Assembly (NCBI GenBank): GCA_051047955.1
Contig: JBPGPT010000046.1
Location: 1 to 64,000 of the forward strand
DNA: 64,000 bases
Origin: Cystobasidiomycetes sp. EMM_F5
Taxonomy: Eukaryota
Reading direction: 5' to 3'
Part shown: one piece after another, positions 32,798 to 47,280 of the stretch
How positions within the stretch are numbered: the first letter of the stretch is position 1
Layout: every line of letters begins with the position of its first letter
The notes under the pieces: model-generated
Told to the model about the DNA's origin: nothing
What the model saw: the letters and a program-made list of their open reading frames with translations, nothing else
The model's database searches: none
Program-made: the position numbers and the translations under genes

Positions 32798-33348
32798 CGA
32801 TAGCTGTGAGATTTGAGTGCTAATAGCGCGGAAGTCTTCCGTGTGTGTTTTGAAAAGCAGAAAGTAGCCGCCAACGCGGTCGCGTCGTGAAGGTCGGACT
32901 ACGCGACGGGCGGCGGCTCTCGATTGCCTCACTCGCAACTTAGCGCATGCAGGCGAACGCGCTGCTCTCTCGCTCAAATCGTCAAACATCAAGGCAACCA
33001 GGCAAGAAGCCTTTCTTCCCCTCCGCACATAACGACGTACAAGGACTGGACCATACTGTATCAGTGCGGACGCGTGCGAACGATCTCGTTTGGCTTTCTT
33101 TTCGGCTTTTCGCGAAGCGCCTCTTCGACCGCACAGTCCTCGTCGAAAGGCTATACCAACAATAGTGCACCATCACATAGTCAGTAGTACTCAGTGGCAT
33201 CCGCTCCAACCAGCGGTTAGCATAGGTAAAACTCAGCGTTGCTGCGCCGGGGATCGCGGGCTGACGTCTTTCGCGTCGCGTGTCGCGCTGCACCACTAGG
33301 ACTCGAAGATAACATCCTGCTCGCGTTTGCAGGCGTGCAAAGCATAAG

Positions 33349-35390
33349 ATGCTCGCTACACATTCTCAGCATTTGAATCACCTTCTTGGTCCGGTCTCGC
33401 CCTACCACGAAGCTGGTCCTATCGCAATGTCCTCCTCGCCGAGCCATTCCCCGGCATCCGAGATCCCTCGATACTTCAGCGAAAGAGAGTACGATGACTC
33501 ACTGCAGTCTTACTCATCACCTCCATCTAGCGTCCCATCGTCTCATAATGCATCATTTAGCGCGTCGGGACCCTATCCTGCCTATACCGACTTTTGTCAG
33601 GATCCGTCGTATGCTTTTGCCTCTTCTCCGCTGTCGCACAATGGCAGTCAGCAGCAACATCAGCCACAATACCTGTTTCAAGAGCTTCCGCAGATGCCAA
33701 TGGCAGAACAACATATCATGCATGAGAAGCAGCAAGCCCCCTTTGTGCCGCCTTACCTGCCGCCGCAACAGCATGCGCATTTACAACACCTCCCGCCTCT
33801 TCCAGGCTTACCGCCGATGCATCACTCCATGATGCCTATGCCTCATGGTCAACCTATCCTCCCATATGGCGAAGATCTTTTCATGCCTGCATATCAAGCG
33901 CCCCGTGCGGCAATGATTCCAGGACTGTCCATGGACCGTCCAGAAGCGAAGCGCAGAAAGACCTGTCCGGAATTAACTGTGGCACAGTCGTCTCCCACTC
34001 CGCAGCGGTATGAGAGCAGGAGGTATGAGGAAGGTAAAAAGGGAGCTGGTAAAGACGGCGAAGATGTTTGGCCAGAGGATGTCGAAGTCGCCTTCTTTGA
34101 GTGTAAGTCATTTCCAACTGCATCGTTTGCCGGAACTGACAGATCCTCCATTTATCACATACTTGCAGCCATCCGCTTGGTACCTAAGCTTGGTCGAAAG
34201 AAAATTGTCGTCAACAGCAAACCCTGCGGACGGAACGAACTCATCAGCGACTATATTCGCCGCAAGACGGGCAAAATCAGATCGCGAAAGCAGGTGTCAA
34301 GCCATATTCAGGTTTTGAAGAATATCAGGACCCATGATGAAGAATGTTTGTTTGAAGTCCGCTATTGATGCTGGCGTAGAGCTGACCCTGTATTGCAGTC
34401 ATGGACCTTGTCGCCGAGCCTAAGGCAGGGGAAGGCGAAGACGATTTCTCCCCTGAGACGCACAGACTGTTCTTCCTGCCGCAGGAATTTGCGCACGTTC
34501 CGTTCGAAGCGCCCCGCAGTGCATCGTCATCAAGCTTGTCTCCAATGCCTTCCTACCCTATGGAGGGTCTGACGCCTGCGTCTATGCCAGCCCGTGACGG
34601 TCTGCTCTCGCCGTACTGCGGAGGATCATTCTTTGCGCCATCCTCAGGATCCTCGTCGCCTGCCCTCTCGTCGTGCTCAAGCATTCCGCCTACCCGTTCC
34701 GTCTCACCTTATCCAATGATGGTTCAGACGCCGAGTGATGAACTGCCTCAACCACTTCAGGTATTCCAATTGAAATTAGCACCTCCGTCTCCTGCAGCGC
34801 CTGCTCCAAGCGGTGCAATTACTGGTTCTGTAAATGCTGCTGATGCCAATGCCACCCCAAAAAGCTCTCCCAGCAAGCTTGGTCATCGTCGTGTAGCATC
34901 CCGAGGTCTCACTCTCACCATCCCACCCAACGCTTTTGCTGCTAGTCAGTCCCAACAAGCCCCGCCGACGATCGAAGAACCATCCTTGATACTTCCGGAA
35001 GGCGATGGCTCCGCTTGTGCTTCGCATCCTACCACGCCTTGGCCACAAGTCTTGCATACTCCCACTTGTGCACCACCCGCACCCGCGATGCTAGGTAGCC
35101 CCACTCAGAGGCGCAGACTGCCGCAAATCTGGGCAACCACGACTGCTGATTGGAATAAGGCTTCGCCTGCCCTAGAAAACAATTTCGAGCATGAGCTGGC
35201 TGCAGCAGTAGCATCATCAAAGTCCATGCAAGATGCCGCTTCACGAACGTCTGCACCACTCAAGCGATCCTACACCGATATGGGTGCTTCAACAACTTAT
35301 GACCCCTTTGAGCACAATGATAACTTGCACTCAAACAAGAATGACGCAGACAGATTCTTCAGTAATCTTCTCGGATCCAGAGACTATTAG
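33349..35390 (+). CDS. TEA/ATTS-domain transcription factor (Tec1/AbaA family)
   Basis: EDVWPEDVEVAFFE-SIRLVPKLGRKK...KPCGRNELISDYIRRKTGKIRSRKQVSSHIQVLK after removing intron 34103-34168. Second intron at approx. 34346-34398. S/P-rich C-terminus. Confidence 0.95.
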
Positions 35391-37201: not shown

Positions 37202-38993
37202 CTAGTATGCCGTTGTCTTCCGCCTGCCTTGCAGACCATACACAGTCAGAGATCCGCTTGACCAGCGGTCCCCTTCCTTCACATCATATCCTTCGCGAGC
37301 GAGAAGCTTCTTGACGGCTGGTAACAGAACCGGGTTTTGCCCACTTGAATGTTTGCCTGCTCCTGTTATGATGGTAAACGTGGTTGGTCCAGATGGAGCT
37401 GCATTGGCGATACATGTCAGCTTGCAAAGAACGGTGTTGTGTAATCAAAACTCACTCGTCCACCAAGAAACCAAGCATTCTTGGGTGACCGTTAGGGCTT
37501 GACTGACTGTGAGGCCATGCAGATCGATGAATTGCATAGTGCGCGCTTGAGTCCTTCGCTCGTCCACGAGGGCACGGGCGCCTCGCAGGTCCCACTGTCG
37601 TGCTTGGCGATCAAGCTGCCGTCCATGGTCCGCCCAATATGCTGCCACTCCGGAATTGCCAATAGCGGTTTTCCTCTGCCAGGTACGTGCAGCATTGCGA
37701 TAAGCTTCGTCCCGCTTGTCTCGTAGGGTGAAAGCCAGTGTCACGCAGTCAATCGCGGACGGCGGTCGCTCAAAGGGAGCGGCTTGCTTCTGGGCAGCGG
37801 GAACTCTACCGTTTTGTACGCCAGCGGCGGGATTCGGCTTGTGCACTAATAACGCCGAGTTCCTCATCGACTTGGAGGAATTGTCATCTAGCAAAAGGGC
37901 GTGTGCTAGCGGAGTGCCTTGACGTGCGTGTAGGTCGGTCAAGGTTTGAAACAGCTCAATAGCTTTTGTGACGTCGCCTTTGGTAGACGTCAAGCATCTA
38001 CGCAGGGCGGAGACGGGTCGATCGGGAAAGAGCGACTGTAGTTGTCCGAGCTTGCCATGAGCATCTTCTATAGTATCAAACGACTCTTCAACGCTGTCCA
38101 TCAACTTGGACATTGCCAGCGGTAGAGAGTTGTTATTTTGGTAAAACAATGATGACAGTTGTCCTGGTGGAATCCCGACCAGCGTAGCAAGATACAAGAC
38201 GGTAGAATCAGTCTTCGCCCAGACATTCTCAGGAGGCTTCGGCTGGAAGATATCGATGTTGTGCATAGCTTTATTGGAGTGACCTCGCGGAGTCGCCGTC
38301 AAAGACACAGTCTGTTTCCCTCGCTTGCCTTGCTGTTTAACAGACTATATCAACGCGGTCCCATCTCATATTGTCATATTGACACCAACCTGACGATGCT
38401 TGCGCCTAGCTGGCTGATCTGAAAACTCTTGTTCGCCAGAAGTCAGCCATTGTATGTATTCTTGCTCCTCCTCTCGTATCAGAAAATCTTCCGTCAACAG
38501 GGTTTCTATGGCAAGCTTAATATGAGTTAGTACCACTAAGCAGGTCCCTTCGGTCGTTGACAGAGATTACCTCGACATCGAGCTTGGCGTCTTGCAAAGC
38601 GAGATCCAACTCCAAACGATCTCGTTTCGGGAAGAGACGTTTCAAAAATCCAAGAGGATCCAACTCATCATCAGAGTACGAGGCTTCGCTGTCTTTGCCA
38701 TTTTGAGATTCTGATGTTTCGTCGGACCAATTCTTGAATGCATGTTCTACCTCATCATCGTCGGTAGCCAGTGTGCTTGCGGCCAGCGAGCTCCCCGAAT
38801 CATCGTAGACTGCCATATCCAGGGTGTGCGAACTCGTTGATGCGCTCGCTGCGTCCCTCAGCGCCGTCAACGTTGCGCGAGCTGCATCTTCGCTAGCAGC
38901 GGTGCCGTCATCGTATTCCGAGCAGATTGCAAAGACGAGCGCGCTGTCCAGATGGCTCGAGTAATCAGGCAGCAGCTTCTCAGCGAGCGACAT
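37202..38993 (-). CDS. CUE2: CUE + DUF1771 + Smr domain endonuclease (Cue2/N4BP2-like)
   Basis: CUE-like segments LGFLKRLFP and LQSLFPD...LTSTKGDV; AARTWQR...GVAAYWAD; Smr motifs IDLHGLTVSQAL and TIITGAGKHS. Stop at 37202-37204. Confidence 0.8.
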
Positions 38994-39275
38994 AGTCCGG
39001 CAATGTTAAAGCTGAAGTCGATAATTGCGACCGCAGCGACAGCATGCTACTTTGAAATCTGAGACACCGAAGGACGACGATCGAGGTATCGCAGAGGGCC
39101 AAAAGCATACGCATGATATCGAGGCCTGAAGTATGCCTGATTACATGCCAAATTCTATCACAATATTGGTATTCATCTCCGCTAAAAAGCTAGGGCGGAT
39201 CGGCCCATTTTGTACAAGAGATCTTCGAAAAGGCTGTTTTTCACAAGAACAACAACAATCGCCGCCTTTCCCGAG

Positions 39276-42169
39276 TCATCTCCAAGCTGGCTTATTGAGA
39301 GAGCCTCCTCTCGAGCTGACAGAGCCCGAGGGAGATCGCACGTGCTGAGGCGATTTGACTGGCAGTGTATTGCTAAACGGAGATCCGGTACGAGCCATTT
39401 CATCCTTTTGTCCGGCTAGTCTGCCTGCCTTGAGGTGCACCTTCTTCGCTTCAGAGACGCGCTCCACTGTGCGCCCGGATCCTGGACTCCTTGCAGCCTG
39501 CGAGATGGACGACATTCGTTTCTTGGGCGAGTCTTGACGTGGCAGCAGCATTGACGGATGGGTTTTGACTGTACGTGGTGGAATGGGCGGTCGGCTAGAC
39601 AGGGAGGTGGTTGGCACGGACGGTAGAACCAGACGCGAAGACGTGTCAACTTTGTCCACCATGCTCAAGACATGCTCCGCCGAGACATGTCTGTTCTGAG
39701 GCGGCGAGATGTTGACTGATGCCCTTTCTGACGACTTGGCGGTTATATTTACGTCTGGTGCCTGCTTCAGCCAGCCTATCGAGCTAGTCCTCGCCAGAGA
39801 CGCCTGCGTCGGACGAGCAAACGAGCCAAGCTGCTGCGTGGATGTGCTTGGCACTCGCAGTGGACCAGTAGGAGCAGCCGGCGCAGCTTCAAGAAGTGCT
39901 GATGCATCCTGTGAAACGTGGATCTTCTGATCGGAAATAGAAGATAGAGAACCCGTTGTGGCCAAGGAGCGGAGACTGCTGAATGATTTTTTGAAGAGAC
40001 TGGATGTTGAAGTTGTTCGGGCAATTATCTTATTGGGTGAGTTAGATCCAGCCAACGGAGGCAACTTTCGTGATCCAGCTGCTTGAGCATTCACTTTGCG
40101 GGGACTGCCATAGGCGCCCGCTGGTCGTGCACTTGAACGCTTGACGGGTACGACATCCTGTCCATATTTCAGTGCTCGTATGCGTTCCCTGTCCAATTCT
40201 TTGCTAGCAGCAGACTTGTCTGGCTTTGGACCAGGTGGTCCCGAGCTCTCATTCGCGAAGATGCTTGGACGATGCGAGAAACTGCCAGCCAACGGGACAC
40301 CGAGCCTAGAGGGATTCGAAATCTTGCTACCGAGGGAATCGTGAGACGGACCAATTAACGTAGTGCTGGATGTTTGCTCAATTTTTGCCCTTTTCTGCGG
40401 AACTTCTACGGGAGCAGACCGCTTTACGGCATAATGACCAGCAATGGAATCCATTCTATCACACATGATTTTAATGCCATCAGCTGTATGTCTTGAAGCA
40501 TATGACCCAACATGACCCACTTTGCGAACTCCTTTTCGTGATGATCAGCAAATCTGACAGCCGTTGACGAAGTCGACCGTGGCATAGGCTTAAACATTGC
40601 TCCTCCTGCTTTATTGAAGATAGACGTATCGAGTCGAAGGTCTGTTCCCGCTCGTCGGTTAAGCTCCTCGAGCATCTTCTCTCGTGTTCCGATACCTAGC
40701 ATGCGCTGTGCTGATGCCTCGAACGCATCTCTGCTCGCTGTATCCTGAGCGGCAGAGGGTGTCCCAAACACAAAGACAGGAGGACGAGCGGCTGCTCCTA
40801 GTCTGACGGGACTATCTGCCAAACGAGCAGGACCATCATTTGTAATGAGATCATCCGAAGAAGGGTTTGCAGTCTCTTGCGGGACTTGAGTCTCGATGCC
40901 GTCACTATTCATTTGCTCTTGTTGGGTTAGGTCTTGAGGTTGACCCCTATCCGGGATAGTCAATGCTAGAGCAAAGGATGGTAGAGGGGGGACGACGCCA
41001 TCGAATTTGGGAGGTCTGGAAGCGATATGACCAGCACGTTTCGGTATACCGGCAATGCGTCTCGCTTTTTCTGAGCCGGGTGTCGCTGGATTGAGAGGTG
41101 AGGCGGGGTTGTTTGCACTGGGCGGGACGAGGCGTATCGTATTTAGCGCTGCAAAGTAGCCGTCCAGCCTCGTTTCATCACACCCTTCCTCATCCTCCTC
41201 TTCTTGACGAAACTCCTCGAATCGACGCTTGTAGGCACTCGTAGGAACTAGGTGACTTGCTTGCGGAAGGGGCGATTTGCACGGGGAAACAAAGATGACA
41301 CCAGCGGGGCTATTTGGACATGGCGGCCATTGCTGTACGCGATCTACCAATGCTGAATAGCCATCGAGGCTCGGTCGAGCAATGTAGGATTCGTCGATAC
41401 AGGTATGGTTGGGCATCGTATTGTCCACGACACGATATTCGTATGTCATGTCGGGAGCAATAGATTGAACTGATCTTGTACTCTCGTACGATTTGCGACG
41501 ACTTGGCATGCTGCCCGGTATCTGCACCACGGTATCGAGCGAAGTTTGTGTGCTGTCTGAAATGGTGGCATCACATGTCCCCTCGACTGTCGCGCGAGAA
41601 GCAAGAGAATTGCAGGAAGCAGCCGATGCTAGGGATTTACTTGATCCTCCGAATGCTCGAGATGCAATATCCTTCAGACTTCTCCAGCTTGAAGTCTTTG
41701 ATATTTCGCAGACTTCTGAAGCAGGGTGGCAAGTCAACATCCACAAGACATTCTCACAAGCAGCAAGAGCCTCACGCGACGACCCAGCAAATGATCCAAA
41801 CTCGTGCGTATTGCAAATCAGTTCCTCGTGCTGTAAGCCGTGCTGTTGTTGCCCGTCTATTGTTTCCCGGCCATCGTCATTGTCGTTGTCGCCATTGCTC
41901 AGCACAGCCGTCAGCTTTGACGGGGACAAGTCTCGCATGCTCTTGAGACGACGTAGCAGTGCATCCTTCTGCAGACATCGATACAAATATCAGCTGAATT
42001 GGCTATCAATTTGCAATACTAGTCGCGGTTCGTAACGGACCTTGCCGGTACTCTTTAGGCCATACCGCGAGCACATGGATCGCAGCTGCTGATGCTTGAG
42101 CGAGTCGAGTGCTGGCGAGTTGAAGATGATGAGCTGCACTGCATGGCTCGTTGATGGTCGGCTGTCCAT
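39276..42169 (-). CDS. SAP-domain, low-complexity basic protein with a NuSAP-like motif
   Basis: Spliced N-terminus LDSLKHQQLRSMCSRYGLKSTGK-KDALLRRLK (SAP-like). Motif RFADHHEKEFAK-MDSIAGHYAVKR spans intron 40456-40520. S/P/K/R-rich tail. Confidence 0.65.
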
Positions 42170-42697
42170 GGTTGGCCAGGGTTGGTCGGGGAGAGCGAAA
42201 CAGCAAGCAGCACGATACGCAACAAGAAGCATATGAATTCTCAAGCACAATCGCATCTACTGCTTTCAGATACTGTTACTGTACATTCGCCGATGTTGCA
42301 CTACTACTCAGGCTCCATTTCGACCATTGCAGCGGTTATCGCCCTCTTCCATCGCTAAACGGTAGAAGACTTCGGTCAGGCTGTCTCTGTCACCATAGGC
42401 GACGAGTGGCACAGTTGCTGGCCGTATATGGTATTTTGAAGTGTAGGGCGCGGATTCCTTTACAGCTTCTCGTGGTTTCAAGCCGGCCGCTTGAGGTCGA
42501 GCTGCATTGCGACCGAAAAATCAACGACAAATGTCAGAGCGCGCAGCATGCTGTTGTTGAAATTGCCGATGCATGCATATGTCTACGTCCTGCATGTCGA
42601 GTCTTGCTGCTCCTGCATTGCCTTCGTTCAGTCGGCACAAAGTCGAGGCGAGTCTCGAATTTTTGGCTTGCTCTCGCTCAGACCATCTGCGCGATAA

Positions 42698-43875
42698 ATG
42701 GCCTCACTTCTGGCTTCATTGCCAGTCGAGGCGAGTCAGCCATACTTACCCTACATCTCTGAACATTTCACTTACTTGTCATTATTGCAGCTCCTCCTCC
42801 AGATCCACCTCCAATCCGTCTCATCGTGGTTCCCTCTGACAAATCGCCACATCCACCAATCCATTGCAGAAAACTCGCCCCAGTCATACAGGATCCAATG
42901 GCTAGTCGCACGGCTCGCAAGGGACGGCTACACCCTTTCATGCCGAAATCCGAAACCAGCAGCATTCTTGACGCACGCCCTACGTTTCCCTCTATGTACG
43001 CTCGATATACTCAAAACACTTCAAGATAGGTGCAAATCGTGTTTTAGCGATGCTGCGGGAGCTCATCTAGTCCGCTTGGCTGAAAGTATGCGCGAAAAGC
43101 AAACAGCCGACTCACCGAGTGCCGATAGCGAACAGCTCGAGCCGCCCACGACCGCTCAGATATCAGCAGAAGCAGCCAGGCTCCTGGATACATCACTACG
43201 CTGTCATCGTCCAGACATCCCGAAACATGTCTTTCGCAAACTCCAAGCATGCGCCGTCCCATCTTCCCGTTCTCGGCTATCACTCCCTACAAGTCGTGCA
43301 TCATGTCTCAACTTCGATACTATCGACTTTCCTATACTCCGTTATATGCTCGTCGAGCTACACGCCAACCCCGATAGTAGTAAAGGGTATCCTTTGGCAA
43401 GAGCAGTTCTAGCTCGCCATATACCCCTCATCCATCTACTCTTACATCACGGTGCAGATCCGTCCGTTCGAGAAAACATGAGCGTCATGCTCGCTATCGG
43501 AAGGAACGATACGGAAATCACACGCATGCTGATAGAGTACACCGAGCCTATCGTTGACGTATTGGACGAGTTGGTCGTTTGTGACAGCACGACCACAGCA
43601 GAAGGGACAGCATGCCGGAGAAAGAGGTCGCTCAGGGATACAAGTCAGAAACCGCGCAAGAAGAAGAGGTTCACAGATCGTATAGACGTCACTTCGGCAA
43701 TGCTCGAGCTGGCAGTCAAACAAAAGCATGAACCCCTTATACAGTATTTTCTTGCCAAAGGTGACTAAACCAAATGCATTTTCCGACTTGGTAATGTATG
43801 CTAATCAAGTCGTCATGCTTTTTATCGACAGGCGCAGTGCCAAATCTACGCACTTTAGGCATGATCCAAGCGTAG
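42698..43875 (+). CDS. Ankyrin-repeat protein with an F-box-like N-terminus
   Basis: LASLPVE-LLLQIHL after a GC-AG intron at 42731-42790. Ankyrin-like ANPDSSKGYPLARAV...LIHLLLHHGADP and MLELAVKQKHEPLIQYFLAK-GAVP. Stop at 43873-43875. Confidence 0.75.
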
Positions 43876-45673: not shown

Positions 45674-47005
45674 TCACTGCCGCATGAATTTGCGAACCTT
45701 GCGACTAAACGTCTTTAACGGAGATGTCTCCTCCAATCTACCCAACACCAGCTTATCTCGCATGCGCTTGAGATGCTCTTCCGTTTTCATTCCGTGTATC
45801 ACGAGAACCGTTTCTGGATCATACTGAATCTCCTCTCGCCGCCAATTTCTCCACTCTCCCATCCTCCCGTCCAAATTCAGTCGGATTAGCTTCTCGCCTG
45901 GCGGTAAGCTGTATAGTAGCCTTCCAGTACGCACGTCCTCAGGTCCGCGTAGTCGTCGGGCCCCGAGATCTGCGTTTCCAATCCACTGATACAAGGGACT
46001 GGTCAAGCCGTAACCAAGGCCAGTAAAGAAGAATGGCCAACCCCGCATAATTCCGCAGCTGTGCCAGGTAACATTTGTCAATACTATAAACACGACTTGG
46101 ACTCGTAACCCACGTCGGATCTGAGCATGAGCCCATATAGTACAAGCTGCTGCAGTCCAGCGTTTTCAGAAGGTCAACAAGGTTGGCGACCACCAGTAAT
46201 GCCTGCGGAACAAACTACGTCTAGTACCTATGCATGAGTGTATGACAGTACTTACATCATCATCCACCTTGAAGGCAAATTGAGGAGCCGGTGCAGGTCT
46301 TGTGGCGAGGTAGCGAAAGAAGGCATAGGACTTCCCCTTGTTCATGTTTTCCGCCTCGTCCAGTAAGACGATGTCATCGTGCATTTCCATCTCTGCCTTG
46401 AGAGCTATGCTCTCTTCCTCCAGCTTCGGCTGCCCTAATATAAACTTAAATTCAACCTTGGCTCCGTTGACATATTCGCTGTGTGGTTTCTCATATTTCC
46501 GCAGGATGTCCCGTCGGGATGCTCGGGAAGCGATGCTGAACACTCCGACGTATAAAAGCGGGTTATCTGGCCCTCTGTCGCACTGTATAGATGAGGGAGG
46601 CTCAGAGTTTCGTAGCTCCGGAATAACTTGCAGTCTTGCATGCTGTTTGGTCAAGCCGGACTCTATCTTATATGTGACAGGCCAACGCCAGGGTCGTAAG
46701 ACTACTCCATGTTCTCCGAGCTGGTAATGGCGGAAGAAGTGGCTTGGCTCAGTGCGATCCCATACCAGCTCCAACACGTCGTAGCCATTAAGATAGATCA
46801 GCCGCAGAGCAATGAGAACGGCACAATATGCAGATAGCCGTGCGAAGGGGAACCTGCAGAGTCGCCGAGTACGTCTGCGAGTAGATGGTCGTTGAGACCA
46901 TTCGCTAAGGGAGATGAAAGGGGAACGTAATGGCAGCAATAGCGGAGATGGTCGAGGGCGCTGCGATGCCCTTGTGGCCAGATAGGCAGATTGCAATTCG
47001 GTCAT
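45674..47005 (-). CDS. Glycosyltransferase family 31 (beta-1,3-galactosyltransferase-like), type II membrane protein
   Basis: TM anchor LSAYCAVLIALRLIYL. Motifs LYVGVFS..RRDILR, EMEMHDDIVLL..ENMNKGKS, FAFKVDDD, FFTGLGYGL, EDVRTG and HGMK. Start is uncertain. Confidence 0.85.
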
Positions 47006-47280
47006 GCTGCGCTGTGAGAATTGCACGTACATCGATGTAGGACTCTGTCACTCCGGTAGCCATTCTCGAGCGACGTCGACAGCCCGGAAGCCAGCCGTTT
47101 GCTTTGGCAATAGTTCGCCACGACCCTATCTCTTTTTTGTAAAACGGCCGAGGCGAATACAGCGCCACTGTTGTTTGATTGTCAGCTTATCAGCCTCGAC
47201 CACTGCAGAAACCTCAGTACGCAGGTCAGTTTTCTTCAAAATTGGTCGCAACAACAATACGATAATGTGACTCCACTCCA

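Follow-up and report, generated by a model that had tools for sequence, protein, structure and literature searches.

The window analyzed here is a 64,000-nucleotide (nt) stretch of contig JBPGPT010000046.1 from Cystobasidiomycetes sp. EMM_F5, and the subject is a three-exon gene at positions 42169..39276 of its minus strand. The gene encodes a protein that starts with a SAP motif and that is possibly a distant fungal relative of the animal spindle protein NuSAP. It was read from the sequence and checked by a script that joined the exons into a coding sequence of 2757 nt, specifying 918 amino acids with a sole, terminal stop. The whole coding region (39276..42169; all features of this gene are on the minus strand) consists of 918 codons and the stop at 39276-39278. 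Exon 1 (P0002, 42041..42169) encodes 43 amino acids; its start codon, at 42169, has the context aaccATGg. Intron 1 (41969..42040) is 72 nt long, reads GTCCGT...CAG, carries the branch-like sequence CAGCTGAT, and contains an in-frame stop. Exon 2 (P0003, 40521..41968) comprises 482 codons plus 2 nt and is largely disordered with conserved short blocks. Intron 2 (40456..40520) is a phase 2 intron of 65 nt, reads GTGGGT...TAG, and also holds the branch-like CAGCTGAT. Exon 3 (39276..40455) completes a Lys codon with its third base and adds 392 codons and the stop.

The octamer CAGCTGAT lies approximately 25 nt 5' of the 3' AG in both introns and is a plausible branch site common to the two. It could also serve as a branch-site consensus for annotating other genes in this genome. 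Two more in-frame ATGs are present 5' of the predicted start, at 42170-42256 (-), in a frame that reads MRLCLRIHMLLVAY...; this extension is hydrophobic and looks non-coding.

Relatives were sought by a HMMER scan with exon 2 against 1.84 billion protein cluster representatives at a threshold of E<=0.001. Ten were found, with E-values from 2e-59 to 3e-4 (seven at E<=1e-10). The best of them (E=2e-59) shares 45% identity with exon 2 in this search, and identities to exon 2 in alignment A1 range from 27 to 42%. A cleanly annotated full-length protein is not among them; they appear to be open reading frame calls on intron-containing DNA, and annotated fungal gene models of this family are evidently scarce or absent in the searched library. 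All 10 align through a VRF..H..F block and then break off or diverge at the site of intron 2. Five (P0005, P0007, P0008, P0009, and P0012) end at the exon end or no more than one residue from it, and three (P0006, P0011, and P0014) run through 5-13 unconserved residues to a stop. The remaining two, P0010 and P0013, cross 20 and 24 unconserved residues, respectively, and resume with MDSIANHYAA[KR]R, the text after the retained intron being MDSIANHYAAKR in P0010 and MDSIANHYAARR in P0013. Further downstream, the blocks P.KR.[KR], PK..K.AA....R.R[IV], and [ST]PR[KR] are common to the three sequences available. A search with exon 2 for longer relatives returned none, alignment A2 matched nothing besides P0010 itself, and residues 445-600 of P0010 recovered only themselves from 226 candidates at E<=10. 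Scans of metagenome contigs with alignments A1 and A3 gave 112 and 598 pattern matches, none of which was confirmed by tblastn.

The position of intron 2 and both halves of the motif that it divides are conserved in these relatives, which supports the junction at the sequence level. A faulty model, in which two separate genes have been joined or exon 3 is non-coding, fits with the protein searches having retrieved no annotated full-length relative. We nevertheless regard it as very improbable, because the two long frames are just 65 nt apart and bounded by GT..AG with the same branch-like motif as in intron 1, because splicing restores one 918-codon frame, and because P0010 and P0013 read over the gap and retain MDSIANHYAA and the downstream blocks. 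The region is one real gene, and its junctions and both of its split motifs are real and conserved. In a first-pass annotation of this DNA, made from the letters alone, an intron had been placed at 40456-40520 with a spliced motif at its junction, a SAP-like motif had been seen at the spliced N-terminus, and both motifs had been described as broken by introns. These claims were borne out. The intron coordinates agree exactly, with GT..AG borders and phase 2, and the spliced motif lies at the junction, where the relatives break off or resume. Intron 1 interrupts the SAP motif and intron 2 the junction motif, and the latter is conserved, its first half in 10 of 10 relatives and its second in both of the two where it can be read. 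Two of the outcomes named at first pass as speaking against the idea, a motif that is not conserved and a junction without support, therefore do not apply. The SAP-like motif is matched by Pfam in its exon 1 half (E=5.2e-4) and by a predicted helix in its second half.

The spliced protein reads VRFADHHEKEFA-K-MDSIAGHYAVKR across junction 2. The first half of the motif, VRFADHHEKEFA (residues 514-525, 40523..40558), is covered by an alignment of 11 sequences, in which R472, H477, and F481 (exon 2 numbering) are invariant and F473 occurs in at least 90%. The second half, MDSIAGHYAVKR (residues 527-538, 40419..40454), corresponds to the stretch with which P0010 and P0013 resume after the retained intron, and the consensus across the phase 2 intron is VRF.D.H.KEF.K/MDSIA.HYA.[KR]R. 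Adjacent to it is a basic pair, KR-x8-KRAK (residues 537-550, 40383..40424); P19, K21, and R22 (exon 3 numbering) are the same in three of three sequences. This pair is a putative nuclear localization signal (NLS), with a spacer of 8 residues as against the classical 10-12. The six frames of the window translate into 127,996 residues that do not contain the pattern F...H[EQDH]..F..M[DE]SI; the spliced protein contains it once. By chance, this pattern would be expected approximately 1e-4 times in a proteome of 5 million residues, a figure that overstates the significance because the pattern was picked after the match had been seen. Reading the 'VRF' of this motif as an RVxF docking site for protein phosphatase 1 was rejected, as most relatives have no basic residue at the required position.

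The SAP domain is a helix-extension-helix module of 35 residues that binds DNA or chromatin. We regard residues 21-54 of the predicted protein as an N-terminal SAP motif, which intron 1 splits into two parts. The first part, LDSLKHQQLRSMCSRYGLKSTGK (residues 21-43, 42041..42109), closes exon 1, and the second, KDALLRRLKSM (residues 44-54, 41936..41968), opens exon 2. Residues 21-43 of exon 1 match positions 2-24 of the 37 positions of the Pfam SAP profile (PF02037) with E=5.2e-4 and 20 bits. This score is below the cut-off of 23.9 bits, and exon 1 encodes just the N-terminal two thirds of the domain; the match is limited to these profile positions because the remainder sits in exon 2. The start of exon 2 suits the second SAP helix both by eye and in the AlphaFold2 model, where a helix at exon 2 residues 2-12 (block predicted local distance difference test [pLDDT] scores of 79 and 74) is the most confident part of the exon. 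Like SAP-domain proteins in general (SAF-A/B, Acinus, PIAS), the window protein shows the pattern L..L....LR..C..RGL...GKK..L..RL. Unlike these proteins, it has none of their typical partner domains (RRM, SP-RING, and others) in Pfam, and a Pfam scan of the three exon translations yielded nothing beyond SAP.

Between the SAP and junction motifs, approximately 470 disordered residues carry conserved short linear motifs. The block ARRIAGIPKR...PPKFD...PPLPSFA (residues 345-376, 40970..41065) contains 13 of the 25 invariant columns of alignment A1. FVFGTP, an FxFG-type element, is located at residues 442-447 (40757..40774), with F399, F401, and G402 of P0003 invariant. A predicted helix pair at residues 456-482 (40652..40732; exon 2 helices 413-423 and 425-439) ends in the conserved LEELNRR. 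The invariant blocks of exon 2 other than the junction block can be written as KRR plus an acidic run, TIR.[LIV]P, RRIA..PKR...PP[KR]F[DN]...P.LPS[FL]A, F[VT]FG, and an LEE[LM].RR helix. Within the conserved block of eight of the 10 relatives, there is a P[KR]R.S.[IL] element, a site of the type used by basophilic kinases, with N at that place in P0009 and P0014. The window protein has PKRAGH there (41020-41040 (-), residues ~353-358), in which Gly replaces Ser and the putative kinase site is lost.

Two of these blocks invite comparison with nuclear pore proteins. Like the N-terminal importin-alpha-binding segment of Nup50/Nup2 (PF08911), the family has an R[RK]IA..P[KR]R-type basic block, and in the FVFG block both Phe residues and the Gly are invariant. 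The protein might thus be a SAP-containing importin-alpha-binding adaptor of the Nup2/Nup50 type at the nuclear pore basket, in which RRIA..PKR and the lone FxFG would serve to bind transport receptors. P0014 gives a weak NUP50 (PF08911) match over the block at residues 345-376 (E=0.045, 14.8 bits where the cut-off is 22.5), but this is one relative of 10, and neither exon 2 of the window nor its block gives such a match. Unlike Nup50/Nup2, the window protein has no FG-repeat array beside its single FxFG, and apart from SAP, neither a Ran-binding domain nor any other Pfam domain was found in the exon translations. We consider this reading improbable, and as the main explanation it was set aside, the match being below threshold and confined to one relative of 10.

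Structure prediction returned few ordered elements. With the family alignment, AlphaFold2 gave exon 2 a mean pLDDT of 48.5, with helices only at residues 2-12, 16-24, 64-79, 98-105, and 413-439 plus short turns. For exon 3 the mean was 48.2, and just one helix was predicted with confidence, at exon 3 residues 82-97. This is the short charged helix AASKELDRERIRALKY (residues 608-623, 40164..40211), which has a block pLDDT of 72-87 and in which K.AA....R.R is conserved in three of three sequences. Sequence and profile searches of the PDB with exons 1, 2, and 3 and with alignments A1 and A4 produced nothing meaningful, the best E-values (0.96, 1.8, and 1.6) belonging to unrelated chains. The ESM Atlas gave no usable match for exon 3 residues 1-130, and P0013 scored at most 0.78 there, against unnamed clusters and below the level of a lead. 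Since Pfam recognizes just SAP and the PDB holds no relative, the protein is best described as a SAP motif joined to a long disordered chain of conserved short motifs. Judged from its sequence, the 918-residue protein looks almost wholly disordered and nuclear.

The end of the protein is a basic disordered tail rich in Ser and Pro (residues 624-918, 39279..40163). An SPRK at residue 643 (40095-40106) is common to both relatives that reach that far. The C-terminal 393 residues have an isoelectric point (pI) of 11.3, with 59 K+R against 23 D+E, and one third of them are Ser, Thr, or Pro. At first pass, this tail had been called basic and rich in SP/TP sites; it is indeed basic, but eight [ST]P sites are observed against 9.1 +/- 2.5 in shuffled sequences, which is no enrichment. 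Of full [ST]Px[KR] sites there are three where 1.4 would be expected, a number that 16% of shuffles attain. SP/TP enrichment as a signature of cyclin-dependent kinase substrates was therefore discarded, because the sites do not exceed composition.

The protein can be compared with NuSAP1 of vertebrates and with Mink (CG11120). Like these proteins, it has a SAP motif at the extreme N-terminus, and apparently also a central conserved motif followed directly by a basic NLS-type pair (514-538, then 537-550). It also shares a long basic disordered C-terminal region and overall disorder, and it has one short charged helix. For the central motif, the animal counterpart is the one quoted at first pass; our own version agrees with it but is not an independent source, and we take the motif as an assumption. 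On this assumption, eight identically spaced positions (F, H, E, F, M, [DE], S, and I) are common to the fungal and animal motifs, and the animal motif presumably lies just before the NLS of NuSAP.

The order of SAP, conserved motif, NLS, and basic disordered region matches that of animal NuSAP, which leads to the reading of the gene product as a NuSAP counterpart. Within it, the local order of motif 514-538 and then KR-x8-KRAK at 537-550 appears to be the best structural argument for kinship. Kinship is suggested by layout and by the presumed animal motif, and microtubule binding is purely conjectural.

Excerpts of the published work place the SAP domain of human and mouse NuSAP at residues 10-44 and its bipartite NLS at 194-211 (PMC12173916). 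In the part of PMC2172854 that was available, the minimal domain for microtubule binding covers residues 243-367, and a fragment of residues 141-240 is nuclear and does not bind microtubules. From excerpts of three papers taken together (PMC12173916; PMC2172854; PMC10093842), a KEN box is mapped to residues 384-390, and the C-terminal charged helical domain (ChHD) is given as 407-432 (PMC10093842) or 410-430 (PMC12173916) in excerpts of two of them. The NLS flanking the microtubule-binding domain is the importin binding site, according to an excerpt of PMC10650578. The idea, put forward at first pass, that the motif starts the microtubule-binding region is at odds with these positions if the motif does lie just before the NLS: binding maps to 243-367, fragment 141-240 does not bind, and the NLS is at 194-211 (PMC2172854 and PMC12173916, both in excerpt). 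With such a layout, the motif is more readily seen as an element flanking the NLS than as the point where the microtubule-binding region begins.

A different explanation takes the protein for a lineage-restricted nuclear scaffold that has a SAP domain and no kinship with NuSAP, the likeness of the motifs being due to chance or convergence. Its SAP motif and basic tail would bind chromatin or RNA, and its short motifs would bring in partners that act in transcription, repair, or the processing of RNA. Proteins of these three processes commonly contain SAP modules (PMC10650578, in part). Just 10 relatives were found among 1.84 billion representatives, and most invariant columns are in exon 2 blocks without a known NuSAP counterpart. 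The scaffold is also in line with the lack of a NUSAP profile match on any piece submitted, of a KEN box, of a terminal charged helical domain, and of SP/TP enrichment. Provided that the presumed animal motif is correct, and only then, two observations argue against the scaffold. One is the agreement at eight positions with the same spacing, which has the small, post hoc chance expectation per proteome given above. The other is the order of the motif relative to the N-terminal SAP, the basic pair, and the basic disordered region, which is as in NuSAP (PMC12173916, in excerpt). We give this explanation a probability not far short of one half, close to that of the NuSAP reading.

Several further points weigh against kinship with NuSAP, to which some of those just named also belong. 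No Pfam NUSAP match (an entry whose accession we take to be PF16006) was obtained at E<=10 with the three exon translations, the 10 relatives, the 40-residue motif halves, or the stretches in which P0010 and P0013 retain the intron. This negative counts weakly, since the halves are too short (approximately four conserved positions) and an insertion of 20-24 residues is costly, so that it would be expected even for a true relative. A check against the NUSAP1 and SAP profiles, which had been proposed at first pass, gave for SAP a match of E=5.2e-4, below the bit cut-off, and for NUSAP no match at E<=10 on pieces in which the motif is split. Full-text literature searches for two sub-strings of the presumed animal motif returned no paper, and a search of one supplement gave nothing either. 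Unlike NuSAP with its 441 residues, the window protein has 918, and its middle of approximately 470 residues has conserved blocks of its own for which we know of no counterpart in NuSAP. It contains no KEN anywhere in the 918 residues, although this is a regulatory feature that may not be universal in the family. Unlike the C-terminal ChHD of NuSAP, its charged helix is approximately 80 residues past the motif and approximately 300 from the C-terminus, and AlphaFold2 predicted no helix near the C-terminus in exon 3. The unenriched SP/TP sites of the tail count in the same direction. Literature searches found no paper connecting NuSAP to fungi, and the original NuSAP paper states, in the portion available, that clear homologues were not found even in invertebrates (PMC2172854). 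The Drosophila homologue Mink was named later (PMC4659922, in excerpt).

On balance, our tentative reading is that the protein is distantly related to NuSAP, or is its counterpart in fungi, and would link chromatin to spindle microtubules in mitosis; we hold this as possible but somewhat short of an even chance. Of the divergent fungal NuSAP homologue suggested in the first-pass annotation, the gene, its junctions, the SAP motif, and the basic tail stand, and no match to the NUSAP profile was obtained on the pieces submitted. If the counterpart reading holds, the SAP motif would dock the protein on chromatin. Importins would import the protein, and probably keep it inactive, through the basic pair beside the conserved element, and the conserved helical motif together with the NLS may form an importin-controlled switch. 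The basic disordered tail would be the polymer-binding part, making electrostatic contact with an acidic polymer. By layout, TPX2 and NuMA, nuclear proteins among the spindle assembly factors under Ran/importin control, offer a functional analogy: their basic microtubule-binding regions adjoin NLSs and are masked by importins until release by RanGTP near chromatin (PMC2172854; PMC4659922; both in excerpt). A relation to them in sequence was neither looked for nor seen.

The family itself could be the fungal orthologue of NuSAP/Mink, again with a probability somewhat under one half; a SAP-anchored linker of chromatin and microtubules under importin regulation would then go back to the ancestor that fungi share with animals. 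NuSAP has been studied nearly exclusively in vertebrates. If the fungal protein is indeed its counterpart, the motif across intron 2 and the adjacent NLS would be the real signature of the family, and the comparison would reveal which short motifs form its conserved core. The gene would then also make available a genetically tractable setting in which to study the coupling of chromatin, importins, and spindle microtubules by a disordered SAP protein. We speculate that fungi whose nuclear envelope opens in mitosis, and which therefore need chromatin to drive spindle assembly, may be the ones that retained the protein. If the likeness is convergent, the gene still encodes a conserved, uncharacterized SAP-domain protein made of short linear motifs, which would be of ordinary interest.

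Other frames were observed in and around the gene. Antisense to exon 2, open frames of 160 and 188 codons occupy 41464-42035 (+); no signs of a gene were seen in them, and they are probably chance frames. Directly downstream of the SAP gene, the gene at 37445-39005 (-) has its start approximately 280 nt from the SAP gene stop and a domain layout typical of CUE/Smr-type proteins, with CUE at E=1e-6 and DUF1771 at E=2e-4, the latter below the cut-off. On the other side, a divergent neighbor at 42698-43768 (+) carries ankyrin repeats (Ank_2/Ank_3/Ank, E ~1e-4) and has an intergenic region of approximately 530 nt in common with the SAP gene. Two adjoining long frames at 33313-35390 (+) are apparently one gene with a short intron, and the first of them contains a Pfam TEA/ATTS domain (E=3.5e-25); on the strength of this domain, the gene is assigned to the Tec1/AbaA-type transcription factors. 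At 46166-47047 (-), a frame matches a galactosyltransferase (PF01762) with E=2.5e-6.

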